DNA from: Candidatus Sungiibacteriota bacterium
GTDB taxonomy: Bacteria > Patescibacteriota > Minisyncoccia > Sungbacterales > SURF-37
Direction of reading: 5' to 3'
Length of the DNA stretch: 64,000 nucleotides
NCBI GenBank assembly: GCA_016186145.1
Contig: JACPMF010000007.1
Location: 19,302-83,301, forward strand
The position numbers and the translations under genes were made by a program. Under the pieces are notes generated by a model. It had not been told where the DNA came from. It saw only the letters and a program-made list of their open reading frames with translations, and did not search any database. Positions 918 to 41,471 of this stretch are shown piece after piece. Every line of letters begins with the position of its first letter. Position 1 is the stretch's first letter.

Positions 918-1853
918 TTACAGGGATTCGATCCCTGTAGAGAAAAGGGCCAACGCATTTTTTGTCGTCATTTCTGACACTTCTTCTACCGATAAATTTT
1001 TAAGCTCAGCAAGCTTTTTGGCAACCTCAATAACATATAGCGGTTCGTTGCGTTTGCCTCTGTAGGGAATGGGCGCCACGTAAGGAGCGTCTGTTTCTAG
1101 AAGTATGCGCTCCATCGGAATGTATTTTACAACTTCGTCGTAGTCGCGCGAAAAAGTTATGACGCCGCCGAAAGAAAACGAAAACCCCAAATCAAGAAGT
1201 TCTTTTGCGTCCTCTTTGACACCGGAAAAAAAATGAATAATGCCGGGAGGAGAACTTAGAACTTGGAGCTTGGAACTTAGAATTTGAATCAGGTCGGGAA
1301 ACGCTTGACGGCAATGAATCATCAGGGGCTTTTTAACCTCGGCGGCTAACTTGATTTGTTGAAGAAAAACTCGATGCTGTTTTGCTTTTCTCTCTTCTAT
1401 AGGCAATCCGCCTTCGCCACAGGTTTCGGCGGATGCTCGTTTTTGTTGTCGCTCGCGTTGCTCGCGAACAAAAACGGCATAATCTAATCCGCATTCGCCA
1501 ATCGCAACAACTTTCGGGTTCTCTGCTAATTTTTTGTAATACTCATAATCAAAAACCTCTCCCCTACTTTCAAATCCTCCTAATTCCTTATTCGTAATTC
1601 CTAATTCCTGTTCATCGTGATATGACTTTTCCGTGTGAATCGGATGAAGCCCCACAGCCGCATACACACCCTCCGTGTATTTTTCGGTAAACCCTACCGC
1701 CCGAGCCGCCGTGTCTTTTTGCGTGCCAACATTAACCATCCACACCCCGGAATCTCTTGCGCGCTTGATTACCAAATCAGCGTCGTCCCGAAACGCCGCG
1801 AATTGAACATGGGTGTGGATATCAAAAAGTTTTGGGATTGACAGAAATTTCAT
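918..1853 (-). CDS. tatD: TatD-family metal-dependent hydrolase/DNase
   Basis: N-terminal DIHTHV motif, GLHP, ECGLD, C-terminal ETDAPY. Contains an in-frame insertion (...ILSSKLQVLSSPP...) encoded by a tandem array of AACTTRG octamers at 1250..1290. Confidence 0.85.
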   Translation of the reverse strand: MKFLSIPKLFDIHTHVQFAAFRDDADLVIKRARDSGVWMVNVGTQKDTAARAVGFTEKYTEGVYAAVGLHPIHTEKSYHDEQELGITNKELGGFESRGEVFDYEYYKKLAENPKVVAIGECGLDYAVFVREQRERQQKRASAETCGEGGLPIEERKAKQHRVFLQQIKLAAEVKKPLMIHCRQAFPDLIQILSSKLQVLSSPPGIIHFFSGVKEDAKELLDLGFSFSFGGVITFSRDYDEVVKYIPMERILLETDAPYVAPIPYRGKRNEPLYVIEVAKKLAELKNLSVEEVSEMTTKNALALFSTGIESL

Positions 1854-4062: not shown

Positions 4063-4134
4063 GGTGTTCGCCCCCATGGTACAGATATTACTACGTTCTT
4101 TCAACAAATCAATTTCGCAATACGGAGGAAAAAA

Positions 4135-4836
4135 ATGGCCAGGAAAAGATTTCTTTACACGATTCTTGCCATTGCTGCCATTATCGCTCTTTTTACGACT
4201 ATTACTGTTTACAAACAAGAAAAAATTCAAAAGATTCAAGAAATAAAAGGGGGTTCAATTTCTACAAATACCGAAGATGCCGCAAAAGACTTACCGGAAT
4301 CCTCCACAATTAGGCAGGCGGCCCTGCTGGCAAAAAATGCGGCTGATAAACAGCGGGCTGAAGAAAAAAAGAGGTTAGACGAAGAAAAAAATATAAAAGC
4401 TGCCGAGGTAATCAGTAACGGATTAATGCTATACTATTTCAACGGTGGAAATAGCCCAACAAACCACATACCCTCCTCTGGCGTGATTAGATTAAAAACT
4501 GACAAATACGACAATTACAATCACAACAAGTTTGCCCCGGAGGTTTTCGCTCTATACCCTAAGTGTATGAATGATGAAGATAGAATGTACGTGGAACAAA
4601 CTTGTATATACACTGCATTCATTCTCGACAGAGTACCGCGCAACAAAGAACTCTTCGGGGCACTAGCGCTTGCGCGAGATGCCGGCATACAAATCGTATT
4701 AACTTATGCTGATAACAATGAACCTGGTAGCTTGTACAAAAGTACTAATACGCGGGGAACACCCCAGATATGGATTAATATTCTCACCACTGACCAAGCC
4801 ATTATAGATTATCTCACCAAAGACGCCAGTAAATAG
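4135..4836 (+). CDS. hypothetical membrane-anchored protein (N-terminal TM helix)
   Basis: A 233-aa ORF with a hydrophobic segment LYTILAIAAIIALFTTITV after a basic N-terminus. No family recognised. Confidence 0.5.
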   Translation: MARKRFLYTILAIAAIIALFTTITVYKQEKIQKIQEIKGGSISTNTEDAAKDLPESSTIRQAALLAKNAADKQRAEEKKRLDEEKNIKAAEVISNGLMLYYFNGGNSPTNHIPSSGVIRLKTDKYDNYNHNKFAPEVFALYPKCMNDEDRMYVEQTCIYTAFILDRVPRNKELFGALALARDAGIQIVLTYADNNEPGSLYKSTNTRGTPQIWINILTTDQAIIDYLTKDASK

Positions 4837-4868: not shown

Positions 4869-5924
4869 TTATCCGTTGCCGCCATACTGAAATACCCCCC
4901 TCTTTTTACGGTCGGTATCCGACAAAAACTCTACAAGCACGCTTGCAACCGGAACCGCCAAAAGAAGGCCGAGAACTCCGCCGAGTTTTCCCCCGATCAA
5001 AAGCGCTATGATGACCACCAGGGGATTCAATCCGATTGTTCTTCGCATAACCGTAGGGACGATCAAATGGCTTTCAATCTGCTGGATGACGAAGTAAACG
5101 GCGATAATGATAAGCCCGAGAACGGGACTTTGCACGAAAGCAACCGCCACGGCGGGTGCTGCGGCAAAAATCGGCCCGATAACCGGAATAACTTCGAAGA
5201 TAGCGGCGAGCACCGCAAAAACCAGACTGTACCGGACATCCAAAAGAGTAAGCGCGATGTAAACCATAATGCCGACAATAACCCCGAGAAGCGCCTGGGC
5301 GCGCAGCCACTGACCAAGCTTCTGCTGCGCCCTCAACCACAAGTCAACCGCATATTCCTCGTACTCAAGCGGAACAATCAGGCGGAGAAAATTCTCAATC
5401 CCTTTTTCCTGGGTCGCGAGGTAAAACGAGACGACAATGGTAATCACCGCAACGGTTACGCCGCCGAAAAAATCCACCGTCAGCGCAAGAGTATTCTCGG
5501 CAAGCTGTTGAAGCTGGCCGGGCGCTGCGGCAAAAAGTTCCTGCCGGTTCTCAACGAATAAACCCGAAAGAGGAACACCGGTAAACGATTGGATTTCCCG
5601 CAGAAGTTCGCGCTGATAAATAGGATACGAAGAAATAAAATTCTGAAGCTCGCCTACAACTGCCGGCAGGGCAAGATATATAACGCCGATAAGGAAAACG
5701 GCAGCAAGAGCGTAGATCACAATAACAGAGATAATCCGTGACACACGGTACTTTCTTCCGAACTGGACGATGGGTTCGATTGCCGATGCGAGAACCACGG
5801 CAAAAAGAAGGGCGGCCAGTATTTGCCACAGGTAGTATGCGGCAGCAACCAAAAACACGAGCCCCAAAAGACGGAGAAAGGTTCCCCAAGTAATGTCTAT
5901 TTTTTCTAGTTGTTTGGTAGGCAT
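4869..5924 (-). CDS. AI-2E family transporter (PerM/UPF0118-like permease)
   Basis: About 350 aa, multiple TM helices, with a conserved C-terminal block (...LNPLVVIIALLIGGKLGGVLGLLLAVPVASVL...) typical of AI-2E/UPF0118. Confidence 0.7.
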   Translation of the reverse strand: MPTKQLEKIDITWGTFLRLLGLVFLVAAAYYLWQILAALLFAVVLASAIEPIVQFGRKYRVSRIISVIVIYALAAVFLIGVIYLALPAVVGELQNFISSYPIYQRELLREIQSFTGVPLSGLFVENRQELFAAAPGQLQQLAENTLALTVDFFGGVTVAVITIVVSFYLATQEKGIENFLRLIVPLEYEEYAVDLWLRAQQKLGQWLRAQALLGVIVGIMVYIALTLLDVRYSLVFAVLAAIFEVIPVIGPIFAAAPAVAVAFVQSPVLGLIIIAVYFVIQQIESHLIVPTVMRRTIGLNPLVVIIALLIGGKLGGVLGLLLAVPVASVLVEFLSDTDRKKRGVFQYGGNG

Positions 5925-6125
5925 GCCAAATTTATTTAAATTTTGGAGCGAAGCGATAAAATTTAACTATAAATTTGAGCACCCCGTTAGATGCGGAAAT
6001 ATAGTAGTTTTCTACGCCTGGTAAAGTTATACGTGTTATACTTTTTGTAAATTTTTTTATGGTTTGTTCCGCTATCTAACGGGGTAAAGGTTTGGCGGCT
6101 GCGATTTTTGCGCCTGCCGCTTAAA
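5925..6125 (-). promoter_or_regulatory. conserved structured upstream element, copy U1 (family also at 18405, 34662, 56461)
   Basis: Sits directly upstream of the start codon. Shares the flanks ...TTTATAGTTA...AGCACC[hairpin]GGTAAAGGTTT with the other copies. Long-range stem CACCCCGTTAGAT / ATCTAACGGGG. Confidence 0.5.
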
Positions 6126-6142
6126 ATCGCAGGCCAAGCCCT

Positions 6143-7411
6143 TTATATTTTTAACAACTTCTCCAGCTTCTCCCTCTCATACGCCGGCCCCAGAAGCGCT
6201 AGGTTCATTGTCTCCTCCTTTATTATATCACGAGCAACGCTCTGAATGTCTTCAACACTCACCGCATCGAGCTTTTTAAAAACCTCATCAATGGTCAGCG
6301 GCTTGCCGGTAAGAATCTCTTCGCCGCCGATAAAAGTGGCGAGGTTGGAAGAAGACTCCATGCCAATCAAGCTCGTTCCTTTTACGTAATCCCTCGCTTT
6401 CTTAAGCTCCTCTTCGGGAACCTTCAAATCGCGTATTTTCCTATACTCGCCGAGAATTGTTTCGATCGCTTTATCAAGCTTTTCTACGGGAACCCCGGCA
6501 TATGTCGCGAGGTAACCATAACGGCTATAATCGTCGAAACTCGTTGAAATATGATACGCGAGGCCAAGCTCTTCCCGTACTTCCAAAAACATGCGGGAGC
6601 TCATACCGCCGCCAAGAATCGTTGCAAGAAGGGACGCGGGCCATACACGCGGATCGTCCTTGCCGAAACCGCGAAAACCAAGAATAACGTGCATCTGATC
6701 CGTTTTCTTTTCCTCGTGAAAAAACGCGGGGGAAGATTGTCCTTCTTTGACTTTTGGCTGCGTCCTTGGCTCTCCGTCACGAAGGTCCCGGAAAGTCTCT
6801 TTTATTTTCTCAACCACCGCAGCCTCATTTTTAATGTTTCCGGCAACAATCACCGCAGTGTTTTTGGCAACGTACTGGCTATGAAAATAATCGACAAAAT
6901 CATCCCGCTTGAGAGATTTGATAACGGGTTCTTCGCCAAGCGTCTCCCACCCTGCCGGCTGATCTCCATATAACAACCTCTCCCAAAGGTAACCGGCCCG
7001 CTGGGGCGGATCGTCATGCCGCATGTGCATTTCTTCAATTATTACTCCCCGCTCGCGCTCTATCTCTTCTGCGGGGAGCGTTGAATTCAAAAATATGTCC
7101 GTCACTACATCAAAGGCCTGATCAAAATACTGGTAGCCGACTTTGGCAAAGTACCCCGTATATTCATTCGAGGTGAATGCGTTATACACCGCACCAAGGC
7201 CGTCGAGCTCAACCGCGATCTGAATTTTTGAAGGCCGTTTTACGGTGCCCTTGAAAAACATGTGCTCAAGAAAATGCGAGATGCCGTTGTTCTGCCGTGT
7301 CTCATGATTTGATCCGGTTCCCACAAAAATCAAAACCGTCACGGTGTTTGTCCCGCTCATTGAGGCCGTCAATATTCTCATCCCATTTGGAAGAACTTCT
7401 TTTTTGAACAT
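6143..7411 (-). CDS. M16-family zinc peptidase (insulinase/pitrilysin-like)
   Basis: HxxEH inverted zincin motif (HFLEHMFFKGT), about 420 aa, peptidase M16 architecture. Confidence 0.85.
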   Translation of the reverse strand: MFKKEVLPNGMRILTASMSGTNTVTVLIFVGTGSNHETRQNNGISHFLEHMFFKGTVKRPSKIQIAVELDGLGAVYNAFTSNEYTGYFAKVGYQYFDQAFDVVTDIFLNSTLPAEEIERERGVIIEEMHMRHDDPPQRAGYLWERLLYGDQPAGWETLGEEPVIKSLKRDDFVDYFHSQYVAKNTAVIVAGNIKNEAAVVEKIKETFRDLRDGEPRTQPKVKEGQSSPAFFHEEKKTDQMHVILGFRGFGKDDPRVWPASLLATILGGGMSSRMFLEVREELGLAYHISTSFDDYSRYGYLATYAGVPVEKLDKAIETILGEYRKIRDLKVPEEELKKARDYVKGTSLIGMESSSNLATFIGGEEILTGKPLTIDEVFKKLDAVSVEDIQSVARDIIKEETMNLALLGPAYEREKLEKLLKI

Positions 7412-7938: not shown

Positions 7939-9324
7939 CTATTGCAACCGTTCCGCGAAATAACTTTCCAAATCTTTCGCCGCAACTCTTTCTTGTTTCA
8001 TGCTGTCCCGATCCCGCACCGTAACTGTTTCGTCTTCCAGCGTCTGAAAATCAACAGTCACACACCACGGCGTCCCTATCTCATCCTGGCTGTAGTAGCG
8101 TTTACCGATATTCCCGCGGTCGTCCCACATCACCTGAACTTGGAATTTACCTGCCCGCCGGCCAGGCAGGGAACTTGGAGCTTTGAAAAGCTGATATATC
8201 TGGCGCGCTTTCTCAACCAACTGCGGCTTATTGGCAAGCAATGGAAACACGGCAACTTTGTACGGCGCGAGCCGCGGATGTAATTTTAGAACCACCCTGC
8301 CTTCTTCTTCATGATATGCATCAAGCAGAAAATACAACAACGGACGCTCGACGCCGCAGGAGGTTTCAATCACCCACGGAATGAAACGATCTTTTACCTC
8401 CGGATCAAAATACGAAAGATCCTCGCCGCTGAATTTTGCATGTTGTGACAAGTCCCAATTACCCCGATTATGAATTCCCTCAGCCTCTTTCCACCCAAAC
8501 GGCGTTTCGTATTCGATGTCCCAGGCCGAACGCGCATAGTGCGCCCGTTCATCCGGCGCGTGCTCCCGAAAACGAAGTCTATCCTTATTCAAGCCGAGCC
8601 CAATATACCATTTCATTCTTTCCTCTTTCCAAAATTCAAAAACTTCCGCCGCCGCTTTCTCTTCCGGACGCACGTAATACTGCAATTCCATTTGCTCAAA
8701 TTCGCGGAGCCGATAGGTAAAGTTCCCTGGCGTAATTTCGTTCCTGAAGGCTTTTCCAATCTGGGCAACGCCGAATGGAATTTTCGGATGCATGGAGTCG
8801 AGGATATTCTTAAAATTCACATGAACGCCTTGCGTTATCTCCCCGCGGAGATACACGGTTGATTTAGATTCTTCAACCGCGCCAAGCCTTGCTTCAACAA
8901 GAAGATTGAACTTCCGCGGCTCAGTCCAATCAACTTTCTCTTTCTTTGCTTTATGCCCCTCCCCGTGCGCCCTTATCTCTTCGTCAAAGTCGGCGCGGAT
9001 TCTTTCGTGGCATGTTTTGCATTCAACCAAAGGGTCGGTGAAAGAAGCGGTGTGTCCCGAAGCCTCCCATACTTTGGGGCTCATCAGGATCGAGGCGTTT
9101 ATCCCGAAAACATTTTCGCGGCGCAACACCATGTACTCCCACCACTGCTGTTTGAAATTAAATTTCAACTCCGCACCCAACGGGCCATAATCCCATGTTC
9201 CGGAAAGCCCGCCGTAAATCTCGGATCCGGGATAAATAAATCCGCGCCGCTTTGCAAGGGAGACAATTTTATCCATCAGCGATTGAGTTTCCTCTTTCAT
9301 CTTTTTCTTTTTAGTCTGAACCAA
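7939..9324 (-). CDS. glyQS: glycyl-tRNA synthetase (dimeric GlyQS type)
   Basis: N-terminus ...MDKIVSLAKRRGFIYPGSEIYGGLSGTWDYGPLG... with class II motifs. The track start is a TTG. ATG at 9300 (MKEETQSL...) is more likely. Contains an in-frame palindromic insertion (APSSLPGRRAGKFQ). Confidence 0.9.
   Translation of the reverse strand: MVQTKKKKMKEETQSLMDKIVSLAKRRGFIYPGSEIYGGLSGTWDYGPLGAELKFNFKQQWWEYMVLRRENVFGINASILMSPKVWEASGHTASFTDPLVECKTCHERIRADFDEEIRAHGEGHKAKKEKVDWTEPRKFNLLVEARLGAVEESKSTVYLRGEITQGVHVNFKNILDSMHPKIPFGVAQIGKAFRNEITPGNFTYRLREFEQMELQYYVRPEEKAAAEVFEFWKEERMKWYIGLGLNKDRLRFREHAPDERAHYARSAWDIEYETPFGWKEAEGIHNRGNWDLSQHAKFSGEDLSYFDPEVKDRFIPWVIETSCGVERPLLYFLLDAYHEEEGRVVLKLHPRLAPYKVAVFPLLANKPQLVEKARQIYQLFKAPSSLPGRRAGKFQVQVMWDDRGNIGKRYYSQDEIGTPWCVTVDFQTLEDETVTVRDRDSMKQERVAAKDLESYFAERLQ
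8136..8178. repeat. in-frame GC-rich palindromic insertion element inside glyS (family also in the femAB-family, Mur ligase and tatD genes)
   Basis: GAACTTGG-AATTTAC-CTGCCCGCCGGCCAGGCAGG-GAACTTGG: hairpin CCTGCCCG/CAGGCAGG flanked by a direct GAACTTGG repeat. Near-identical core to 28583..28610. Confidence 0.5.
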
Positions 9325-9573
9325 ACGCGCGGTCGAGGCAATTTCTTACCAACGATTTTTAATTCCGCCAATCCCGCCGTACGGCAACTCTGTAGCCCCG
9401 ACAGGCTTGGTCTTTCGCGAAGCGAAAGCTGTCGGGGCGAAAGCGTAGCGAGGGCGAGCCGCTGGAGTCCAGACGCGAGAGCCCTCCGCGAAACTCGCCG
9501 CAGGCGAGTGAGTCGGAGGCTCCCGTCTCCGAGCCGGAGCGGTGCCGTTAGGCGGGATGGGCGGAATAATGCG
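9325..9573 (-). other. GC-rich (~65%) highly structured intergenic region immediately upstream of glyQS; candidate leader/ncRNA
   Basis: Nested hairpins: GCCCCGACAG...CTGTCGGGGC enclosing CTTTCGCGAAGCGAAAG, plus GAGGGC...GCCCTC and CTGGAGTCCAG. No credible ORF. The track's 272-aa + strand ORF spanning it overlaps glyS antisense and is rejected. Confidence 0.3.
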
Positions 9574-11469
9574 CTACGGTACTACCCTCCACTGGGTGCT
9601 GTCCCGAACCGTATCTTGCTGAAGTTCAATGGTAACATTTCCAACAGTAACCTTGAGCGGCTCTTTCGTAAAGTCGTCAACCCCTTCCGCGCGCACTCCG
9701 GAGACAAGAACCGGGGAAAGGCCGATTTGATCTTCGCCCGGGATAAGAGAAACGCGAAACGCAAGAGTTAATTGCGGCCGTAAAATTCCGGCGCCTGCGG
9801 CAAGACGCGGAACATTCCAGACAACCTCATTGGACGCGGCATTAAAAACTGCGGAACCCGCCACTTCGCCTACGGTTCCGAGCCAACGGACGTTTGCCGG
9901 AAGCCCCCCTCTAACTTCAAGGTTCACCGCATCGTTGGTTTGATTCGCAAGCTGCCAGAAAACCGTATAGGTCGTCTCTTCCCGCACTTTCGGCGGCAAC
10001 GGACCGGAGTTCTGGACCGAAGAGTCAAAATATGCCGCGTGCCCCTTCAGAGTAAGCATGGTGCCGATTTTAAAATCAAGCTTATCCTCATATCGAAGCT
10101 TTATGCCGCGAAACTCTTCCGGTACAACAGAAAGATCAATGATGCCGAGGGAACTTAATGTAAAATTTCTGTCCGAAGAGCTCCTCAAAGGCGGCGAGGG
10201 CCGGAGTATTACCGAAAAATTCAAAACACCTTCCTGCCCCGGGTTGACCCTTTTCAATTCGGGACGGGTTGCCCCGGCCCAACGAATTTCGTGATTCAAG
10301 GGATCGTAAACGCCATTATCAATTCGCAATGTCGTTAAATTAACGAGCCCTTCGGAAAGACGCACGGCAACAGTCATACCGTCGATCGGTTTAGAAAGAT
10401 TATTTTTATAGGACAAGGCGAAATTAAGAAGTTCTCCGCCGACAAAGGTCCCGCTCCTTCGGCTATTTACGGTCTGCCGCAAAAAAAGAAACGGGGAAGC
10501 AATTTTGGGTCCGCGCGACTCTTCAAGAAGAGTAAACCATTCGCGCGTCTCGGAACGATATTGCCCCAATGACGCATTGAATGATTTTGTTTCTTCCGGC
10601 TCGCCGCGAAGCATGCCCTTAACAATTATTTTTTTTGAAGTACCGCGCCCAAAATCTCCAAGAGCCCAAATGTTATTCTCAAAGTCCGGCTTCGGATCTG
10701 CAGAAGTAAATTCAAATCCTTCCGGATAGTCGACACGGAGCGCAAGTCCGCTGACGACAGATACCGCCTCGCTATCAACCAAAAACTCCATAGAAACGTC
10801 CTGCGCGGAGGATATTTCTTCAGGACCCGATACGGTAACAGCGAACGGAACACGCGAAATCCGAAACATCCGAGAGGCCCTCTTGGTAAAACGGCTTTCA
10901 AGATTTCCCGGCTGGTATATTGCAAGAACAACCAATTCGGCTTCATTGCCGATCTTGCCCAAACTTTTGAACGCAATGTCATGTTTCACCTCTTCATTCG
11001 GGGCTATCTTTTCAAAAGTAACCTGCTCGCGGCTTCCCGGTTTCGCCTCGCCAGTCGGAGGAAACAACACGACCGTGTGATCCGGATAATTGATCGTGAG
11101 CTCTACATTTTTAAGTTCGGATCTACCGGTGTTCTTCACAAAAATAGAAAAATCAGCCCGCTCGCCCGCCACAACGCCATCAGGCCCGGCGATAACAATT
11201 GCAACTTCTTCCCTGACAAAAAAGACCTGATACCCCACATACAAAACAACGCCCGCAAGAACCACAAATGAAAAAATAAAAACATTCAAAAACCACCGGC
11301 CCCGCTTCGGCGCCGAGGGAGCCTTCTCTCCACGCAGAGACCTGTCTGTCCAAAATGTCTTGGCTCCATCTCCCCTCTTTTGCGAACGGAAACGCTCTCT
11401 TTCAATCAACCTTTTCTCCGGCTCTTCCCGGCCGTATAGCTTTTGGCGAAGTTCTTCAAGTGATGGCAT
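9574..11469 (-). CDS. large membrane-anchored hypothetical protein, N-terminal TM plus ~550-aa extracytoplasmic region
   Basis: 631 aa. Cytoplasmic K/R/E-rich N-terminus, one TM (WFLNVFIFSFVVLAGVVLYVGY), then beta-rich repeats resembling DUF11/CARDB-like surface domains. Confidence 0.6.
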   Translation of the reverse strand: MPSLEELRQKLYGREEPEKRLIERERFRSQKRGDGAKTFWTDRSLRGEKAPSAPKRGRWFLNVFIFSFVVLAGVVLYVGYQVFFVREEVAIVIAGPDGVVAGERADFSIFVKNTGRSELKNVELTINYPDHTVVLFPPTGEAKPGSREQVTFEKIAPNEEVKHDIAFKSLGKIGNEAELVVLAIYQPGNLESRFTKRASRMFRISRVPFAVTVSGPEEISSAQDVSMEFLVDSEAVSVVSGLALRVDYPEGFEFTSADPKPDFENNIWALGDFGRGTSKKIIVKGMLRGEPEETKSFNASLGQYRSETREWFTLLEESRGPKIASPFLFLRQTVNSRRSGTFVGGELLNFALSYKNNLSKPIDGMTVAVRLSEGLVNLTTLRIDNGVYDPLNHEIRWAGATRPELKRVNPGQEGVLNFSVILRPSPPLRSSSDRNFTLSSLGIIDLSVVPEEFRGIKLRYEDKLDFKIGTMLTLKGHAAYFDSSVQNSGPLPPKVREETTYTVFWQLANQTNDAVNLEVRGGLPANVRWLGTVGEVAGSAVFNAASNEVVWNVPRLAAGAGILRPQLTLAFRVSLIPGEDQIGLSPVLVSGVRAEGVDDFTKEPLKVTVGNVTIELQQDTVRDSTQWRVVP

Positions 11470-11520
11470 AAATAAAACTGGTTGCTGATTACTAGAGGCT
11501 ATCTCAAAAACACTTTTTCT

Positions 11521-11618
11521 GCGTCTTTCCGCGCAGCATTCTGCATTTATCCGCGGAGCCTCCGCGGAATAACACGGATTGCAACGCGGATTTATGCGGA
11601 AATTGAATTTTGAAATGA
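11521..11618. repeat. intergenic repeat family R2, copy A (palindromic TCCGCGGA units; copy B at 37811..37910)
   Basis: ...ATCCGCGGAGCCTCCGCGGAATAACACGGATTGCAACGCGGATTTATGCGGAAATTGAATTTTGAAAT... aligns at about 80% identity with 37841..37910 in the same orientation. Confidence 0.5.
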
Positions 11619-11928: not shown

Positions 11929-13968
11929 ATGGAACGAGCGCCAAGGCCACAATTCGAAAAAGACGACAACAAAGAAGTCTCTCAAGCATGGGAGGCAGGA
12001 CTTAAACGAAGGGGTATTGAGCCGCCCGCCGAGCGTGAGCTGGCAAAACAAGAAGAGAAAGGAGACCTCAAGAGCCGCTACGATATTGCAACAGAACGGG
12101 TTGCAAGAATTCCAGAAAGACCCATAGAAACTGACGAACACGGACAGATGCTGGAGCAGGATGCTGAAATAGAAGTGCCATCGGCAGAGCCGGGGTTGCT
12201 TATCGAAAAACCCTCAACACGGATAGAGCAAGGGCGATTTTCAATCAAAGACCGCCTTGACGTTCTTCGGGGAAAAGGAATGGGACGGCTTGCGCAAGTT
12301 GCGGCACTCAGCGCGCTTGCACTTCTTAGCTCAGGAGTCAAACCGCCTGAAACCCGCGGAGCTCCAGCCGGCGGACAAGGAATAAGTGCGCCAAAAGATG
12401 CAATACCCATGAGAGAGTCCGGAAAGGAAACTGAATCGCGCGCTACCAAGTGGCCGGGGTGGGTTGGCAGAATGTTTGAGGTAGACAAAAAAGGAGAGAT
12501 ACATTTCAACCCCTGGGTTATCCTTGCTCCGGTACAATTTGTGTGGAAAGGGGAAATGAAACATGCAAACGAAAAAACTTTTGCGCCTCCTTACGAATAT
12601 GCCAGGCAATTTGAGGCAGATGCGGCCGCCAAACGCCCGCTACGACCGGAAGATCACAAGAAAATTACCAATTATGTGGGTCAACAGCTAAATCGGAGAT
12701 TTGTCGACACCATAGGCACCCTGGGTGAAGGCGTTGACCGCTTTAACTACGGAGCGCCAAAAGAAAACCAGGGAGAAATCACCTCAATTCAAATAACGGG
12801 GTTTGCCTCTCCCGAAGGCCCAAGAAGCAAAGGGCCAAGCACGCTTGCGCCCGGTAAAGTTGACCAAGAAAACTTGCGCCTTGCAAAAGCAAGAGCCGAG
12901 GCGGCCTTGGGCTACACCAAGGCCGACCTTGCGAAGGTTTCAGAAGCGACCGGAATAAATATAGCTGTCCTTGAAAAAACACTACAGAACGTTAAAGCGG
13001 AGGAGGTTCAATTTTCGGATGCCGAGCTTAAAGAACTTGCGAAACTTGCCGCAGGCCACAAGGGCGCAGACGATCTTGAAAAAATCTTCAACCTTGTTGC
13101 TGACTACAATGACGATTCTGAACAAAAAGACCCAAGTAAAAAGAAAATAAAAGACGCCAAAACAGTTAGCCGCCTGCATGATATTGTCGGTTCAAAAAGA
13201 AAAGCGGAAATCCAAGTAACGTACGACGGAAAAAATGTCGAGCGCCATTCTATCCCCATTCCCTGGCTTCCGCTTTTGCTGCTCGTACCGCTTATGCGTC
13301 GCCGACGCGGAGAACCAACGCCCGAACCGCCCGTTACTCCTGAAAGCGGCGAGCCAGATTTGCACGACCGTTACCCGTTTTTAGGGAAACGCCCCGTAGA
13401 AAAGGAGTCGGAAGAAACAAAAATCGCGCCCGAAGAGGAAAAAACTCTCCCGCCAAGCGCCCAAAATATAGAACGCGCCCGCCTTCTGGAACAAATTCAC
13501 AAAGACGTAACAAGCACCCGCCTTCCGGAGAGGGGCACAAAGGAATTCGAAGAAATGGAAGAAGCAACTTATACTGACGACCTCTACCAGTTCTTCGACG
13601 ACCCCGAAAGCATCCGGCTTGGTATTGACTACCGCGCAATGGCGGATGATCTCGACCAAAAATGGGATATTTTCAAAACATCGGACGAACGAGAAAACTA
13701 TCTCGCAAACGAAATTCTTAACGCATGGAAAAAGAAAGACCGCCTCTGCCGAGTTGAAGCCGGAGTTTCGGAAGACAGTCTTGATAACGGGCTTGATTAC
13801 GAGAATCAGCCGCGCCAAATCCAATGGGCCAAAATGCATGCGCGATCTCTTCTCCGAGTGATTGACAAAAGAAAAGAATTTAGCGAAAGCGAACGAAAAC
13901 GAATTGATTACCTCGACCTCCTCTCCCCTCAAGTGAAAAAGATGATCCAACGGAGAGGCCGCCGATAA
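11929..13968 (+). CDS. large hypothetical protein, acidic/low-complexity, with an internal hydrophobic segment followed by RRRR
   Basis: 679 aa. PIPWLPLLLLVPLMRRRRGE around residue 440 resembles a PEP-CTERM-like sorting anchor but is internal. ...IQITGFASPEGPRSKG...ENLRLAKARAEAAL... is weakly OmpA-C-like. Confidence 0.55.
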   Translation: MERAPRPQFEKDDNKEVSQAWEAGLKRRGIEPPAERELAKQEEKGDLKSRYDIATERVARIPERPIETDEHGQMLEQDAEIEVPSAEPGLLIEKPSTRIEQGRFSIKDRLDVLRGKGMGRLAQVAALSALALLSSGVKPPETRGAPAGGQGISAPKDAIPMRESGKETESRATKWPGWVGRMFEVDKKGEIHFNPWVILAPVQFVWKGEMKHANEKTFAPPYEYARQFEADAAAKRPLRPEDHKKITNYVGQQLNRRFVDTIGTLGEGVDRFNYGAPKENQGEITSIQITGFASPEGPRSKGPSTLAPGKVDQENLRLAKARAEAALGYTKADLAKVSEATGINIAVLEKTLQNVKAEEVQFSDAELKELAKLAAGHKGADDLEKIFNLVADYNDDSEQKDPSKKKIKDAKTVSRLHDIVGSKRKAEIQVTYDGKNVERHSIPIPWLPLLLLVPLMRRRRGEPTPEPPVTPESGEPDLHDRYPFLGKRPVEKESEETKIAPEEEKTLPPSAQNIERARLLEQIHKDVTSTRLPERGTKEFEEMEEATYTDDLYQFFDDPESIRLGIDYRAMADDLDQKWDIFKTSDERENYLANEILNAWKKKDRLCRVEAGVSEDSLDNGLDYENQPRQIQWAKMHARSLLRVIDKRKEFSESERKRIDYLDLLSPQVKKMIQRRGRR

Positions 13969-26501: not shown

Positions 26502-26528
26502 GGGCGAGCACTGCTCGCCCTGTTTTTA
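26502..26528. terminator. bidirectional hairpin terminator
   Basis: GGGCGAGCACTGCTCGCCC followed by TGTTTTTAT. Preceded by a second hairpin GGCGGCAGTGGCTAATTCGCCGCC. Confidence 0.6.
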
Positions 26529-27860
26529 TTTCGGCCCCATTAATTCTTCCTTGGCAGCCTGCCTGTCGTCCCACGGTATTTTTACTCCGGCAGGACCCAT
26601 GATAAACCGTTCCGCCCCCTTGCCGGTGATAACCACCGTATCGCCGGGCATTGCGAGACGCAGAGCTTCACGAATTGCTTCACGACGATCGATATAGCTT
26701 TTAGCTTTTAGCTTATAGCTTATAGGTACGCCCACCGCAACATCATCTATAATTTTTTGTGGATTTTCATCGTATGGGTCTTCGTTGGTCAAAATAACTT
26801 CGCTGCAAAACTCCGAGGCGATTTTTCCCAACTCCGGGCGTTTCCATTTATCGCGCCCGCCTCCGGCAGCACCCAAGACGCAAAGGAGCTTAAATCTTGG
26901 AGCTTGTCCGCCGAAGGCGGATCCACCTCTGGCGGAGAGCTTGGAGCGCTTACGAAGCGTTTCATAAACTTTCCGCAATGCATTTGGAGTGTGGGCGTAA
27001 TCGACAACCACGCGAAACGGTTCGTTTTGAAGAACTTCAAGCCGACCGGGAATACTCTTTATATGTTTAAGAGCGCCGGCTATATTTTCAAAAGAAACCC
27101 CAAAAGAACGCGCCGTAGCGACAGCCGCAAGGATGTTAGAGACATTAAATTGCCCGAAGAGCGCTGAATAAAAATCTATTCCGCTCACCCGAAAATATAT
27201 TTCGTTTTCGCAAGAAACATTGCTCACCGAAAACTCAACGCCGCCAACAACCAAAGACGCCGTGCTGTAAAAATTTATTTTCGCGCGTGCTCGCTTTGCA
27301 AAAAATTCCCATGCCGGATCGTCGCGATTCAAAACTGCAATTCCGTCGGAACCAAGCGCCTCAAAAAGCTTTGCTTTTGCCGCACGGTATTTCTCAAAAT
27401 CGCCGTGCGACTCAATATGCTCCGGCGTCAAATTCGTAAAGACGGCACAATCAAATGTTATAAACCGGTGCCGAAATTGCTTGATGCCCTCGGAGGTGAC
27501 CTCGATGACGGCAAACCTCGCTCCGGCTCTTCGCGCATCGGCAAGAAACCGCTGGACGGCAAACCTTCCCGGCATGGTCATTTTGAGAACATTCGGCCGC
27601 TCGCTTTCATTAATCTTGAAACGAAGAGAGGAACAGGAGGCAACCGAATAACCGCTTTTCAAAAAAATCTCGTGCAGCAAAGAAACAACGCTCGACTTTC
27701 CATCCGTTCCGGTCACCCCAATGACAACGAGACGGCGCGAAGGGAAAAGATAAAAAAACGCCGCAAAAAAAGCCAGTAAAAAATGGTAAAACGGCTGAAG
27801 CATTTTGAAAATCGGCCGCGGAATAATTTTTTTTAGCAGGGCTAAAACGGAATTTGACAT
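26526..27860 (-). CDS. Mur ligase family protein (MurE/MurF-like UDP-N-acetylmuramoyl-peptide ligase)
   Basis: P-loop VIGVTGTDGKSS. Central and C-terminal Mur ligase domains. Short TM-containing N-terminus. Contains an in-frame palindromic insertion (...LSARGGSAFGGQAPRFK...). Confidence 0.7.
   Translation of the reverse strand: MSNSVLALLKKIIPRPIFKMLQPFYHFLLAFFAAFFYLFPSRRLVVIGVTGTDGKSSVVSLLHEIFLKSGYSVASCSSLRFKINESERPNVLKMTMPGRFAVQRFLADARRAGARFAVIEVTSEGIKQFRHRFITFDCAVFTNLTPEHIESHGDFEKYRAAKAKLFEALGSDGIAVLNRDDPAWEFFAKRARAKINFYSTASLVVGGVEFSVSNVSCENEIYFRVSGIDFYSALFGQFNVSNILAAVATARSFGVSFENIAGALKHIKSIPGRLEVLQNEPFRVVVDYAHTPNALRKVYETLRKRSKLSARGGSAFGGQAPRFKLLCVLGAAGGGRDKWKRPELGKIASEFCSEVILTNEDPYDENPQKIIDDVAVGVPISYKLKAKSYIDRREAIREALRLAMPGDTVVITGKGAERFIMGPAGVKIPWDDRQAAKEELMGPK
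26884..26958. repeat. in-frame palindromic insertion element inside the Mur ligase gene
   Basis: GAGCTTAAATCTTGGAGCTTG-TCCGCCGAAGGCGGATCCACCTCTGGCGGA-GAGCTTGGAGCGCTT. Shares CTTGTCCGCCGAAGGCG(G/A)ATCC with 28556..28580 and is flanked by direct GAGCTTGG repeats. Confidence 0.45.
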
Positions 27861-27930: not shown

Positions 27931-28914
27931 TCACCGCTTGCGTCTCAAAACGCGGAGGACGCTATAAAGAAAATACAGGCCGGGCCGATACACAACGTCC
28001 ACGGCCGAGGGGTATTCGATAACCTGCCCGCCGAAACCAATCTTGAACCGCGTCACTCCCGGCCACCGTCTTTCATCGACCCCCCAAAAATCGTAAAAGC
28101 CAAACCCGCGGTTTTTCGCTTCACGTATAATTTCCCAATGCAGAAGATGGGGGGCCATCATCTCTTTATACGCCCGGGACGAAGCTCCGTGTAGGTAAGT
28201 CGCCGTATGTGACGGCCCATAAAAATTGATAAGCGCGGCCGCCAAAATTTTATCTTCATAACGAGCAAAATAGAGTTCATTCCAAAAATTATCTGAACGG
28301 GTTTCAAAAAGAAACCGGTAGTGACGCTCGTCGTGAAGAGAAAAGCCATCCCGCTGCGACGTCTCGCAGAGAAGAGAAAAAAAGTTCCGGAATTGATCGC
28401 GTTCAACTCTTTGGACAACAACACCGTGCCGTGCCGCAAGACGAATATTGTAACGCGTCTTGGGGTGCATCTCCAAAAGCAACGCATCCTCGGTCTTTGA
28501 TAAATCGAGAATCAGCGTCTTTTGCGGCTGCAATGAATACGATTCGCGAACTTGAAACTTGTCCGCCGAAGGCGAATCCCCACCTGCCTGCCGGCCAGGC
28601 AGGGAACTTGCTTGCCCGCCGAAGCTCCAGCGTAGGCGGGGGGTTTGGAACTTTTCGATTGGTTCTACTCTTAGAAAAATACTTTTCTCCTCTTTTGCAA
28701 CTTTTTCCGCGCTTTCCAAAAATTTTTTGAGATCGCTTTTATTTTCAAAATGCGGCCGCGGAGCATACGCATAACCAAACCCGAAAGGAAGGGCGTGCTG
28801 AATCATAAGCGCGCCTTCCGCCCGCCATATTTTTCTTCCAATTCTTTGCTGAAACTGCTCCCATTCCGATGACTGTAAAAAAGAAATTTCCCGTTCTACT
28901 GAATATGCCATCAT
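27931..28914 (-). CDS. FemAB-family aminoacyl-tRNA-dependent peptidoglycan peptidyltransferase (FemX-like)
   Basis: About 327 aa, FemAB/GNAT-like fold signature (...YLHGASS...). Next to the Mur ligase gene. Carries the longest in-frame palindromic insertion (RWSFGGQASSLPGRQAGGDSPSADKFQV). Confidence 0.75.
   Translation of the reverse strand: MMAYSVEREISFLQSSEWEQFQQRIGRKIWRAEGALMIQHALPFGFGYAYAPRPHFENKSDLKKFLESAEKVAKEEKSIFLRVEPIEKFQTPRLRWSFGGQASSLPGRQAGGDSPSADKFQVRESYSLQPQKTLILDLSKTEDALLLEMHPKTRYNIRLAARHGVVVQRVERDQFRNFFSLLCETSQRDGFSLHDERHYRFLFETRSDNFWNELYFARYEDKILAAALINFYGPSHTATYLHGASSRAYKEMMAPHLLHWEIIREAKNRGFGFYDFWGVDERRWPGVTRFKIGFGGQVIEYPSAVDVVYRPGLYFLYSVLRVLRRKR
28535..28660. repeat. in-frame palindromic insertion element inside the FemAB-family gene (longest copy)
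   Basis: GAACTTGAAACTTG-TCCGCCGAAGGCGAATCCCCACC-TGCCTGCCGGCCAGGCAGG-GAACTTG-CTTGCCCGCCGAAGC-TCCAGCGTAGGCGGGGGGTTTG-GAACTT: central hairpin CCTGCCTG/CAGGCAGG, repeated CCGCCGAAG modules and GAACTTG direct repeats. Confidence 0.5.
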
Positions 28915-29914: not shown

Positions 29915-31957
29915 ATGTCAAACTTCAAACTTTTTTCAAATTTCAAACCAACCGGAGATCAACCGGGCGCCATTAGCCGACTAACGGCAAATCTGCACGC
30001 CGGCATTAAACATCAAACCCTCTTAGGGGTAACCGGTTCCGGGAAAACATTCACGATGGCAAACGTTATTGAGCGCGTGCAGAAACCAACGCTTGTAATC
30101 TCGCACAACAAAACGCTCGCCGGACAGCTTTACCAGGAATTCAAAGAGTTTTTTCCGAAGAATTCGGTCCATTATTTCGTGTCGTACTACGACTACTACC
30201 AACCGGAAGCATACATTCCCCGAACGGATACCTATATAGAAAAGGATGCAAAAATCAACGATATAATAGACGCCCTCCGGCACGCCGCAACCGCATCCCT
30301 CCTGACGCGCAACGACGTCATTATCGTCGCATCCGTATCGTGCATCTACGGCATCGGCGACCCGGAGGAATACGAAAAAATCACTCTTGATTTAGAAATC
30401 GGCAAAAAAATCGCGCGTCGCGATCTTTTACACTACCTTGTTCTTTTGCAATACGCCAAAAATGAATTTGATCCGCGCCAAGGACATTTCCGCGCGCGAG
30501 GAGACATGATAGAGATTTACCTTCCGTCCGGAGAAGAAATAATCGACGTGGAACTTGAAAACAATATAGTCGTATCGCTGAAGAAACGCCGGCAGCAAAA
30601 CCAAATTCACGATTCTGAATTCCAAACGCTTAATTCCGCGAAAATCTTTCCGGCGAAACACTTTGTCACGCCGCGCCAGAAACTTGAACTGGCCATAAAA
30701 AATATCCGCCAGGAACTGAAAGAACGCCTCTCGGCGCTCAAGAAAAACGGACGGCCGCTCGAAGCCGAGCGGCTGGAGCAACGAACCCATTTTGACCTGG
30801 AAATGTTGAAAGAAACCGGATATACGAACGGGATTGAGAATTATTCCCGCCACCTATCATTTCGCGAACCCGGTTCTCCGCCATCCACCCTTATCGACTA
30901 CTACCGCCACCGTTTTGGCAATCAGTTTCTTGTATTTATCGACGAATCGCATGTGTCTATTCCACAACTTCGCGGCATGTATCACGGCGACTATGCGCGA
31001 AAGCAAACCCTTGTTGATTACGGCTTCCGCTTGCCGTCTGCCATAGACAACAGACCGCTGAAGTTCACGGAGTTTGATAAAAAAATTAACCAACGAATTT
31101 ATGTTTCAGCAACACCGTCTGAGTATGAACTTAATCTGAGCCGCAGTTCGCATTCAGGCGTTCTAAGTTCTCCGCCAGAGGCGGATAAGCTCAAAGTCCC
31201 AAATTCATACGTCGTAGAGCAGTTCATCCGTCCGACCGGAGTTCTTGACCCGGAAACCGAAATCCGACCGACAAAGGGTCAAATCAAAAATGTCATCGCT
31301 GAAATTAAAAAACGCGTAGCCAAAAAAGAACGCTCTCTCGTCCTCGCTCTGACAAAACGCCTCGCAGAAGATATCGCCGAATACCTGCAGGAAGCGGGCA
31401 TCAAAGCCGAATACCTCCACTCCGAAGTAAAAACACTGGAACGCTCTGATATCCTCAAAAATTTGAGAACGGGAAAACATGACGTAATCGTCGGCATCAA
31501 TCTTTTGCGGGAAGGCCTTGATCTGCCGGAGGTTTCTCTTATCGCCATCCTGGACGCCGACAAGGAAGGATTTTTGAGAAACGAAACAACTCTCCTTCAA
31601 ATCATGGGGCGCGCCGCGCGGCATGTTGACGGCAAGGTGGTTCTCTACGCGGACACCATAACCGATTCGATGCGGCGGGCAATCGGCGAAACGAAGCGCC
31701 GGAGAAAAATTCAAGCGGAATACAACAAAAACAACGGCATTACCCCAAAAAAAATTGAAAAGGCAATACGAAAATCTCTCCTTGAAGAAATCGCTCCCGC
31801 CAAAAAGGAAGAAGAAATTTTTACGCCTTTAAACGCGCCCTCTCGAGAGGCTGTATCCGCCTTAGAGCGCGAGATGCGTAAAGCGGCAAAGGAGATGAAC
31901 TTCGAATTGGCCGCGAGAATTAGAGATCGTATTAAAATGTATAAACAGCAAAAATGA
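29915..31957 (+). CDS. uvrB: excinuclease ABC subunit B
   Basis: GVTGSGKTF Walker A, helicase motifs, UvrB interaction domain and C-terminal UvrB/UvrC domain (...EMNFELAARIRDRI...). 680 aa. Confidence 0.95.
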   Translation: MSNFKLFSNFKPTGDQPGAISRLTANLHAGIKHQTLLGVTGSGKTFTMANVIERVQKPTLVISHNKTLAGQLYQEFKEFFPKNSVHYFVSYYDYYQPEAYIPRTDTYIEKDAKINDIIDALRHAATASLLTRNDVIIVASVSCIYGIGDPEEYEKITLDLEIGKKIARRDLLHYLVLLQYAKNEFDPRQGHFRARGDMIEIYLPSGEEIIDVELENNIVVSLKKRRQQNQIHDSEFQTLNSAKIFPAKHFVTPRQKLELAIKNIRQELKERLSALKKNGRPLEAERLEQRTHFDLEMLKETGYTNGIENYSRHLSFREPGSPPSTLIDYYRHRFGNQFLVFIDESHVSIPQLRGMYHGDYARKQTLVDYGFRLPSAIDNRPLKFTEFDKKINQRIYVSATPSEYELNLSRSSHSGVLSSPPEADKLKVPNSYVVEQFIRPTGVLDPETEIRPTKGQIKNVIAEIKKRVAKKERSLVLALTKRLAEDIAEYLQEAGIKAEYLHSEVKTLERSDILKNLRTGKHDVIVGINLLREGLDLPEVSLIAILDADKEGFLRNETTLLQIMGRAARHVDGKVVLYADTITDSMRRAIGETKRRRKIQAEYNKNNGITPKKIEKAIRKSLLEEIAPAKKEEEIFTPLNAPSREAVSALEREMRKAAKEMNFELAARIRDRIKMYKQQK

Positions 31958-37810: not shown

Positions 37811-37910
37811 CATCCGCGCTTTCCGCGTAACAATCCGCATCGATCCGCGGGGACTCCGCGGAAATATGCGGATAGCGACGCAGATTTATACGGAAGTCGA
37901 TTTTGAAATT
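37811..37910. repeat. intergenic repeat family R2, copy B
   Basis: CATCCGCGCTTTCCGCG...ATCCGCGGGGACTCCGCGGAAATATGCGGATAGCGACGCAGATTTATACGGAAGTCGATTTTGAAATTGAT is homologous to 11521..11618. Confidence 0.5.
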
Positions 37911-40548: not shown

Positions 40549-40602
40549 GCCAAACTAAAAAGTAAAAATGAAAAAGGAAAAATCAAAATGTAAAACTAAA
40601 AA

Positions 40603-40974
40603 CTACCGTCGGCCCTTGATAGTGAGAATGCTGGCACCAAGAATGTTGGCTATCTCAATAAGCTCGTTGAGCAGGAATTCTATTTCTTGTCTGTTGCCGC
40701 GGCCAGTATCACGGAGAACAGCCAACCAAAATCTGGATTCATTGGCCGACTTTAGCGCATGATGCAAGAAATTTGCGAAATCTTTTTTAGAGCTTGCTGC
40801 TTGGGCTTCTATATAGTTTGCTCCCACACTCCCGCCGCTACGAAATAATTGATCAACAATTCTCTGTGTAATAGTGTCTTTAGGAGCTGAATCAAGAAAT
40901 TTGATTAGACGTAGTACCCAAATATAAATGCGGCGCTTAAATTCAGTTTTGAATTTTTCCTTGTCGTTTTTCAT
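40603..40974 (-). CDS. four-helix-bundle protein (TIGR02436-like; 23S rRNA intervening-sequence protein family)
   Basis: 123 aa. ...RSGGSVGANYIEAQAASSKKDFANFLHHALKSANESRFWLAV... matches the characteristic motif. Confidence 0.75.
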   Translation of the reverse strand: MKNDKEKFKTEFKRRIYIWVLRLIKFLDSAPKDTITQRIVDQLFRSGGSVGANYIEAQAASSKKDFANFLHHALKSANESRFWLAVLRDTGRGNRQEIEFLLNELIEIANILGASILTIKGRR

Positions 40975-40991
40975 TTTTAATTTTTACCTTT

Positions 40992-41471
40992 TCATTTAAT
41001 AATGATGTGCCTATGTCCTCTTCCCTTATGCTTCAACTCTACCCACAGCGCATCTTTTGGAATATGCTTTTTTATCTTCTCCGGCCACTCAACCGCAACA
41101 AAGTTTTGCGCATCGTCGAAAACCCCATTAAACCAGGATGCCGCCGGCTCTTTTTTGCCGCCAAGACGGTACGCGTCAATATGAACCAGAACGCGCCAGG
41201 GCATACCGCGTTTTTTCACCTTGTATTTTTTCGCGATAACGAAAGTCGGACTCTGAACTTTTTCTGAAACGCCGAGCGCCTTCCCGAGACCCTGAACAAG
41301 CGTGGTCTTTCCTGTTCCAAGCTCGCCGGAAAGAGCAACGACTGCTGCCGTTCCGATTTTTGAAAAATCTTTTTTAAGTTTTTTAATGACAAAACGAGCG
41401 ACCCTTTTGGTTTCAACGGGATTTTTGGTGCGATACCTCATCGGCTTAAGCGTAACAAAAATTGAGGGCAA
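40992..41471 (-). CDS. tsaE: tRNA threonylcarbamoyladenosine biosynthesis ATPase TsaE
   Basis: P-loop ALSGELGTGKTTLVQGL. About 159 aa, YjeE family. Confidence 0.85.
   Translation of the reverse strand: MPSIFVTLKPMRYRTKNPVETKRVARFVIKKLKKDFSKIGTAAVVALSGELGTGKTTLVQGLGKALGVSEKVQSPTFVIAKKYKVKKRGMPWRVLVHIDAYRLGGKKEPAASWFNGVFDDAQNFVAVEWPEKIKKHIPKDALWVELKHKGRGHRHIIIK

Follow-up and report, generated by a model that had tools for sequence, protein, structure and literature searches.

A hairpin-plus-heptamer repeat of REP/SDR-like type, with a core found across phyla, inside genes of a Candidatus Sungbacteria genome

The small dispersed repeats (SDRs; families SDR1-8) of the Nostocaceae, reportedly described by Elhai et al. 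in 2008 (Genome Res 18:1484), are said to be hairpin-forming sequences of 21-27 nt, the smallest mobile elements proposed, which often lie within tandem heptamer repeats and nested in each other. SDRs are not known to insert in frame into essential genes. Two papers cite a precise insertion of SDR5 into HIP1 (PMC4390886, PMC5861425), and one of them reports SDRs only in the Nostocaceae (PMC5861425). Rickettsia palindromic elements (RPEs; RPE-1 to RPE-8) are selfish palindromic repeats that keep the reading frame of the various housekeeping genes in which they sit, among them uvrB and genes for tRNA-related enzymes (PMC3733652). Repetitive extragenic palindromic sequences (REPs) with a GTAG or CGTC tag have been found in eight phyla (Di Nocera et al., 2013; PMC3733652). 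In Opitutus, Thauera, Xanthomonas, and others, REPs also lie in frame within genes for polymerases and tRNA synthetases and within uvrA/uvrB and recBCD, and RPE-4 and RPE-6 of Rickettsia have been equated with the CGTC REPs (PMC3733652). We analyzed a 64-kb stretch of DNA (the window) from a metagenome-assembled genome (MAG) of Candidatus Sungbacteria, of the candidate phyla radiation (CPR; Patescibacteria). In it, GC-rich hairpins and the heptamer YAAGYTC recur inside glyS, a FemAB-family gene (femAB), a MurE-like ligase gene (mur), and uvrB. The original prediction had likened such copies to RPEs and considered them rarely reported outside Rickettsiales, a view made outdated by the intragenic GTAG and CGTC REPs of Opitutus, Thauera, and Xanthomonas (PMC3733652). 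A better description of the copies is a hairpin-plus-heptamer repeat that resembles REPs and SDRs, lies within genes, and has a core found across phyla. They probably represent a tiny DNA repeat of the REP, RPE, or SDR kind that is non-autonomous.

Each of these systems shares some features with the window. Like SDRs, the copies contain a hairpin-forming unit set among heptamers, either of 22 nt (the 15-nt hairpin with its heptamer) or of 21 nt (a hairpin alone), and the hairpin-in-heptamer-array architecture of SDRs appears, by analogy, to be the closest match. They differ from SDRs in their non-cyanobacterial host, in their sequences, and in their conserved flanking heptamer, YAAGYTC. The resemblance to RPEs lies in insertions that are in frame, stop-free, absent from orthologues, and at permissive positions (in glyS, femAB, uvrB, and mur; a heptamer array in tatD is excepted). 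RPE-1, however, is specific to Rickettsia and forms one long imperfect palindrome of ~100-150 bp, whereas here hairpins of 15-26 nt are separated by direct heptamers in composites of 36-107 nt. The host is, moreover, a CPR bacterium and not a member of Rickettsiales, and the core 22-mer is found in many phyla. As in REPs, which have stems of 5-13 bp, a short GC-rich stem-loop carries an unpaired conserved tag at one end, and the unit occurs singly, as a dimer, or in clusters, mostly between genes (PMC3733652, PMC3116915). In place of the REP tags GTAG and CGTC, the unit carries CAAGYTC on the 3' side of its stem (on the other strand, GARCTTG on the 5' side). Its 6-bp stem closes a loop of 3 nt. 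No REP-associated tyrosine transposase (RAYT) was found among 47 open reading frames (ORFs) scanned in the window, which covers part of the genome; the CGTC REPs have no associated RAYT (PMC3733652). Miniature inverted-repeat transposable elements are also small, non-autonomous, and able to lie within ORFs (PMC10969869). They typically exceed 100 bp, end in inverted repeats that match those of a parent insertion sequence, and have target-site duplications of variable sequence, whereas the copies here have no terminal inverted repeats and are flanked by direct repeats with a conserved YAAGYTC at all sites. Literature searches, including searches with the exact sequence, found no paper describing these elements.

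Anatomy and shared DNA of the copies

On the coding strand, each copy is a mosaic of direct YAAGYTC heptamers, spaced with a period of 7, and short GC hairpins (Table 1). There are three types of hairpin, given here for the coding strand: a 15-nt TCCGCC-NNN-GGCGGA, a 21-nt CCTGCCTGGCCGGCAGGCAGG, and, in femAB, a 26-nt CCCGCC..GGCGGG. Stems are 6-8 bp long and loops 3-5 nt, except for one hairpin with a 14-nt loop. All the sequence modules that had been predicted were found at their coordinates, in frame and in one orientation, with YAAGYTC on the coding strand; Pfam confirmed the host genes glyS, femAB, Mur ligase, and tatD, and the predicted peptides are correct. The tatD array had been read as a repeated octamer, which is corrected here to the heptamer YAAGYTC on the sense strand with period 7. 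A k-mer and heptamer-cluster scan, together with a mismatch search used in place of a covariance model, identified a fifth copy, in uvrB. The window holds 5-7 copies in 64 kb.

The same DNA is found in genes that are unrelated. Within the window, the 21-nt hairpin CCTGCCYGCCGGCCAGGCAGG is confined to glyS (8150-8170) and femAB (28583-28603), and the 22-nt sequence CTTGTCCGCCGAAGGCGRATCC to mur (26903-26924) and femAB (28558-28579). The glyS and femAB copies are identical at 27 of 28 nt, which bears out the near-identical 28-nt core of the original prediction, and the mur and femAB copies at 21 of 22; neither CCTGCCYGCCGGCCAGGCAGG nor CTTGTCCGCCGAAGGCGRATCC had a match in 100 dinucleotide-preserving shuffles. 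When up to three mismatches were allowed, the 22-mer gave four matches from three loci (mur, femAB, and the uvrB hairpin on both strands), with 0.07 expected. The 15-nt hairpin is translated as S-A-F-G-G in mur, and the third femAB hairpin is read in the same frame as SFGGQ; one base out of register, the 15-nt hairpin yields S-P-P-E-A-D in uvrB and S-P-S-A-D-K in femAB. Because the hairpin DNA is read in two frames, the repeated unit is the DNA and not the peptide, and codon bias acting on similar peptides, which had been named as a possible refutation, is ruled out. The copies did not arise through misassembly: Logan assemblies made independently from two sequencing runs encode FemAB and TatD proteins identical to those of the window, and one of them includes the mur copy.

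This identity bears on a local origin of the copies, by which slippage, tandem duplication, or template switching in place would have produced each of them and the similarity between loci would reflect a shared mutational bias. Slippage cannot yield 27/28 and 21/22 nt identity between non-repetitive hairpins in unrelated genes, and we regard a local origin as unlikely; the tandem arrays that speak for it are considered below. The local hairpins do fold, but the whole composite folds no better than shuffled sequence (z = -0.3 to -1.1 for the femAB copy), and the element is therefore not one long palindrome. The predicted likeness to RPEs holds in that the copies are in frame, absent from orthologues, and compatible with translation; it fails on the single long palindrome. 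A protein-database search with the concatenated insert peptides returned 52 candidates, none of which scored.

All copies are in frame, free of stop codons, and a multiple of three in length (36, 27, and 87 nt). The most economical reading of these two constraints is that the copies are simply translated, as the intact reading frames suggest, into disordered loops rich in Ser, Pro, Gly, Lys, and Gln that would have no function of their own; their location in loops is predicted from structural models. It is highly improbable that the copies escape translation through ribosomal bypassing between matching flanking codons or through removal from the mRNA. The GC-rich 'byp' inserts of Magnusiomyces mitochondria provide a model for non-translated hairpins, and direct repeats around a stable hairpin have the geometry of take-off and landing sites. 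However, the constraint to stop-free multiples of three in the host frame, seen in every copy, would be needless if the sequence were skipped. There was also no match to a ribozyme or intron family, and Rfam detected no family at any copy or at 18 motif-bearing loci.

Stop codons were considered as the cause of the uniform orientation, with YAAGYTC on the coding strand in 6/6 in-frame copies, and rejected, since both orientations offer open frames (sense 10/15, antisense 9/15). The uniformity may instead come from selection for hydrophilic sense-strand peptides or from a strand-specific mechanism.

Insertion into the host genes

The glyS copy amounts to a net insertion of 36 nt (+12 aa) and encodes PSSLPGRRAGKF, which is missing from all 24 of the nearest glycyl-tRNA synthetase (GlyRS) 50%-cluster representatives and from the solved GlyRS 8u2q, as had been predicted for this enzyme. 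The femAB composite encodes KFQTPRLRWSFGGQASSLPGRQAGGDSPSADKFQV. Its closest orthologue (locus L121; 70-75% identical) is 29 aa shorter at the insert and has an empty site; other FemAB homologues in Parcubacteria have inserts of a different kind or arrays of the heptamer CAATTYC, both at this site and elsewhere in the protein. Structural mapping places both inserts in predicted loops. In AlphaFold models with a predicted local distance difference test score (pLDDT) of 85.1 (GlyRS) and 88.5 (FemAB) overall, the inserted residues (384-393 and 93-116, respectively) have pLDDT <50. The GlyRS insert is modelled as coil between helix 367-381 and strand 398-400 in the anticodon-binding domain, and the FemAB insert as coil between strands 78-84 and 121-125. 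In the models, then, both are low-confidence coil loops between regular secondary-structure elements.

The uvrB copy encodes GVLSSPPEADKLKVPN. The syntenic uvrB orthologue in L121 (88% identical) is 14 aa shorter at exactly this point, the segment is absent from the solved UvrB 2fdc, and the empty site of the orthologue has no heptamer, which argues against a local origin. The situation in mur is different. The window copy encodes KLSARGGSAFGGQAPRFK, and the region is ~10 aa longer than in the solved MurE, but the orthologues in L121 and in a second related locus, L122, contain a bare array of five CAAGTTC-type heptamers (SSKFQVLSSKL). In the window, two hairpins (30 nt) lie within the heptamer array for a net gain of 27 nt over L121 and L122. 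Hairpin content therefore varies within an older array, and that the array pre-exists in orthologues favors a local origin. Sequence comparison thus confirms the term 'inserted' for glyS (+12 aa), uvrB (+14 aa), femAB (+29 aa), and the mur hairpins.

Of the four genes originally held to contain insertions, tatD is the one for which the claim did not stand. Its heptamer array, TAAGTTC, CAAGCTC, CAAGTTC, TAAGTTC on the sense strand (peptide LSSKLQVLSS), resembles the heptamers that flank the hairpins of the other copies. An alignment with 22 orthologues has no gap here, peptides of the NSKLQILNS type occupy the same position in many of them, and the window protein is only 2 aa longer than the solved YcfH. 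The array is thus ancestral and not a recent insertion, contrary to the expectation that TatD homologues, like those of GlyRS, would have nothing here; a shared peptide at one position in orthologues was what the original prediction had named as its refutation. A second palindromic insertion in tatD encodes FVREQRERQQKRASAETCGEGGLP in frame. It combines an AT-rich stem of 12-13 bp, GTTTTTGTTCGC..GCGACAACAAAAAC, with a TCCGCC..GGCGGA stem, and it is found in about one-third of Sungbacteria TatD orthologues with the conserved peptide RASAEA.SEGGLP. This insertion is likely an older relative of the same kind of element and a candidate member. The methionyl-tRNA synthetase (MetRS) gene metG contains a perfect hairpin, CTCCGCCTCTGGCGGAG, in the part for the anticodon-binding domain; it is translated as SASGG, in the frame that gives SAFGG in mur. 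It has no clear flanking heptamers; the region is ~6 aa longer than in the solved MetRS 2csx, although the alignment there is ambiguous. The metG hairpin is a possible degenerate copy.

At the uvrB site, the L122 orthologue (4898-6964) carries an unrelated, longer insert, e.g., SIKHCERRDSNTRIHSNDSNNLSDIRKLES, and the same UvrB and FemAB loop positions bear unrelated insertions across Parcubacteria (for FemAB, e.g., NFQF..NFQF arrays). Such positions look like hot spots that have received insertions repeatedly, or are simply permissive. They are also relevant to the idea that the copies are kept for a selected function, either of the peptide, as a flexible linker or interaction loop, or of an mRNA hairpin that affects translational pausing or stability. 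Retention of the segments in essential genes, their hydrophilic sense-strand peptides, the single orientation where both offer open frames, and the recurrence of insertion at the uvrB and femAB sites would all fit a benefit to the host. Purifying selection alone, however, already predicts recurrent sites. The same DNA read in different frames gives different peptides, close orthologues of the same enzymes do without the segments, the segments are predicted to be disordered, and in other phyla the unit is mostly found between genes. We therefore consider a selected function quite unlikely.

Table 1. Positions and make-up of the repeat copies, candidate copies, and unrelated heptamer arrays in the window
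Feature	Position	Strand	Host gene (Pfam)	Arrangement
glyS element	8136-8184	-	class II GlyRS, 7939-9324 (-)	+ strand: GAACTTG, GAATTTA, hairpin CCTGCCCGCCGGCCAGGCAGG (8150-8170), GAACTTG, GAGCTTT; coding strand: two heptamers, 21-nt hairpin, two heptamers
femAB composite	28548-28654 (107 nt)	-	FemAB family, 27931-28914 (-)	+ strand: GAACTTG, AAACTTG, hairpin TCCGCCGAAGGCGAA (28562-28576), spacer, hairpin CCTGCCTGCCGGCCAGGCAGG (28583-28603), GAACTTG, CTTG, hairpin CCCGCC..GGCGGG (28615-28640), GGGTTTG, GAACTTT; coding strand: three hairpins with heptamers between and around them
mur element	26886-26952	-	MurE-like (Mur ligase), 26526-27860 (-)	GAGCTTA, AATCTTG, GAGCTTG, hairpins TCCGCCGAAGGCGGA (26907-26921) and TCCACCTCTGGCGGA (26922-26936), GAGCTTG; coding strand: heptamers, two 15-nt hairpins, three heptamers
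uvrB copy	31157-31206 (core 36 nt, 31157-31192)	+	UvrB, 29915-31957 (+)	coding strand: GGCGTTC, TAAGTTC, hairpin TCCGCCAGAGGCGGA (31171-31185), TAAGCTC, degenerate AAAGTCC, CAAATTC
tatD heptamer-only array	1251-1286	-	TatD, 918-1853 (-)	
tatD second palindromic insertion	1383-1478	-	TatD	
metG hairpin	2892-2908	-	MetRS, 2542-4239 (-)	
tatD unrelated period-7 array	1578-1609		TatD	
metG unrelated period-7 array	3289-3320		MetRS	perfect, TCAGCAT x4
mur unrelated period-7 array	26693-26725		MurE-like	

The core unit in other genomes and period-7 arrays

One genome per GTDB species was scanned with the pattern TCCGCCNNNGGCGGAYAAGYTC. The 22-mer TCCGCC-NNN-GGCGGA-YAAGYTC gave at least 134 exact matches at at least 119 loci in other genomes, against ~17 that we estimate for random sequence. 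The matches listed come from Planctomycetota, Verrucomicrobiota, Omnitrophota, Bacteroidota/Ignavibacteriota, Acidobacteriota, Nitrospirae, Chloroflexi, and about ten Patescibacteria. They are skewed toward the Planctomycetes-Verrucomicrobia-Chlamydiae (PVC) and Fibrobacteres-Chlorobi-Bacteroidetes (FCB) groups, Acidobacteriota, Omnitrophota, Nitrospirae, and CPR, with few from Proteobacteria or Actinobacteria and none from Firmicutes. Several of the genomes among them have matches at multiple loci (in Niastella soli, at least 4) or have tandem hairpin-plus-heptamer units of 20-22 nt. Conservation in the same set of listed matches extends beyond the search pattern, with A before the stem in 63% and, again in 63%, A at the third position of the loop; the first base of the heptamer is C rather than T in 83%. 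About 70% of the listed matches fall outside long ORFs. Judged from these sequences, the unit is not lineage-specific and is elsewhere mostly intergenic. All copies found in the 64-kb window lie in genes, which is consistent with its scarce intergenic DNA. Slippage cannot account for the same 22-mer in many phyla.

Individual matches resemble the window copies in context or in order. In a Patescibacteria MAG (L091), the 22-mer, matched on the minus strand of the locus (position 1652 on the reverse-complemented locus), lies in frame in glyA, the serine hydroxymethyltransferase (SHMT) gene, where the protein reads SYPSPF-SAKGGQALA-DVVMTTTHKTLRGPR a few residues ahead of the lysine motif that binds pyridoxal phosphate. 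A Nitrospirales MAG matches femAB in the order of its parts: a hairpin of the 21-nt type, then a 15-nt hairpin, then CAAGCTC. Among the matches from Acidobacteriota and Planctomycetota are some in which a larger stem encloses the 22-mer and terminates in CTAC, which is complementary to GTAG and hints at a link with the GTAG REPs. The broader formulation that any hairpin may accompany YAAGYTC was rejected: other stems were not enriched beside the heptamer when compared with permuted control heptamers. On this sequence evidence, the heptamer association is specific to the TCCGCC..GGCGGA stem.

A separate arrangement was seen in Ancylomarina euxinus (L055, 6433-7876), where at least six tandem units of 128 bp lie after three tRNA-Met genes; in each unit, the 22-mer is fused at CAAG/TTCGAAT to the 3' part of tRNA-Met, from the T-loop onward. 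A tRNA origin of the 22-mer, suggested by this fusion, found no support in the other matches.

Tandem Repeats Finder identified period 7 as the dominant tandem class in the window. Four intragenic arrays span 32-33 nt (4.6-4.7 copies), three of them with units unrelated to YAAGYTC (Table 1), and the metG array is an insertion relative to the solved MetRS. The relatives have similar arrays (L122 10262-10294, 10942-10973, and 12376-12409; L121 6426-6456 and 7595-7620). In the motif-bearing loci of other phyla (774 kb), there are 55 period-7 arrays of at least 3.5 copies, against 15 arrays for the next most common period; shuffled sequences and 50 kb of E. coli contain essentially no such arrays (0 in E. 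coli). A length of ~4.6 copies would fit in-frame steps of three units (21 nt). These arrays, with their unrelated units in tatD, metG, mur, L121, and L122 and their excess in motif-bearing loci, speak for a local origin, as does the ancestral YAAGYTC array of tatD. Against it, heptamer arrays are generally not found beside GC hairpins (3/74, compared with 11% at random positions), a result that also led us to reject the arrays as hairpin footprints.

Elsewhere in the window, a gene for a 23S rRNA-intervening-sequence protein (PF05635; 40603-40974) is flanked by A-rich repeats of period 7/14 (40552-40605 and 40942-40997).

Possible route of spread and other features of the window

We propose that the mobile unit would be a GC-rich stem-loop of 15-26 nt with the conserved, unpaired heptamer YAAGYTC 3' of its stem, and that units may be strung together and bracketed by more heptamers. 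That copies spread at the DNA level is evident from near-identical DNA in unrelated genes and from differences among orthologues in its presence. HUH/Y1 single-strand transposases, such as those of the REP/RAYT and IS200/IS605 systems, classically act on stem-loops that bear a conserved tag outside the paired region. By analogy, the most likely route is a HUH/tyrosine single-strand DNA transposase that recognizes the hairpin plus tag and acts in trans, in the manner proposed for RAYTs and REPs, or, alternatively, template switching between copies during replication. To persist in an essential gene, a copy would need a length that is a multiple of three, no stop codons, and a permissive loop.

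Several observations weigh against this proposal. A Pfam scan found no transposase of any kind, Y1_Tnp and RAYT included, among the 47 window ORFs scanned. The tag is neither GTAG nor CGTC, and a link to RAYTs is therefore only an analogy. The orientation bias of the in-frame copies has no explanation in stop codons. The intragenic heptamer arrays with unrelated units, together with the ancestral tatD array, imply that part of the pattern may be local duplication and not mobility. Viral contigs gave 0 matches to the 22-mer and so no sign of a phage vector. A search of metagenomes of the Joint Genome Institute (JGI) for the 21-nt hairpin plus heptamer gave one match, a single hairpin in an unrelated secreted protein.

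A wider proposal, which we offer only tentatively and regard as doubtful, is that A-TCCGCC-NNA-GGCGGA-CAAGYTC might be the substrate of an unrecognised, phylum-spanning mobilisation system, akin to that of SDRs and apart from the GTAG/RAYT and CGTC REPs. It might be linked to the excess of 7-bp arrays, would count among the smallest mobile DNAs, and could remodel loops of essential enzymes in gene-dense CPR genomes. The presence of the 22-nt unit across PVC, FCB, Acidobacteriota, Omnitrophota, Nitrospirae, and CPR, along with the abundant heptamer repeats, points to a common mechanism. Cultured carriers (Niastella soli, Niastella yeongjuensis, Ancylomarina euxinus, and Sediminibacterium goheungense) make such a mechanism testable. 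If the copies are mobile, selfish hairpin repeats would reach essential genes, those for glycyl-tRNA synthetase, a MurE-like ligase, a FemAB-family transferase, and UvrB, even in an ultra-small CPR genome. They would also account for part of the odd low-complexity insertions that are common in CPR proteins, a matter of relevance to annotators and structure predictors.

The GC-rich region at 9325-9573, upstream of glyS, had been proposed to hold further nested copies. The heptamer scan and mismatch search found neither heptamer nor 22-mer copies there, and what is present is a separate intergenic element. It spans 9362-9567 (up to 74% GC), between the stop of a DUF11 gene at 9574 and the glyS start at 9324, and consists of a 30-nt long-range inverted repeat (9362-9391 with 9538-9567) around two hairpins. 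As minus-strand RNA, it has a minimum free energy of -132.9 kcal/mol (z = -6.2; 0/200 shuffles were as stable), and 9250-9650 has no match in Rfam. Possible identities are a novel structured RNA that precedes glyS and a palindromic repeat of larger size.

Two other intergenic hairpins, at 11550-11568 and 37844-37862, are similar to each other, with the sequence TCCGCGG(A/G)G(C/A)CTCCGCGGA, and may be terminators or another small repeat family; a 22-nt tandem duplication (11517-11559) adjoins the first. Directly after tRNA-Lys (738-812), a second, weak Rfam tRNA match (826-885; 35.5 bits) has no ARAGORN call. One of the few plus-strand genes, at 11929-13968, is a 679-aa ORF with no Pfam match, set in a stretch of strong AT skew (0.29).

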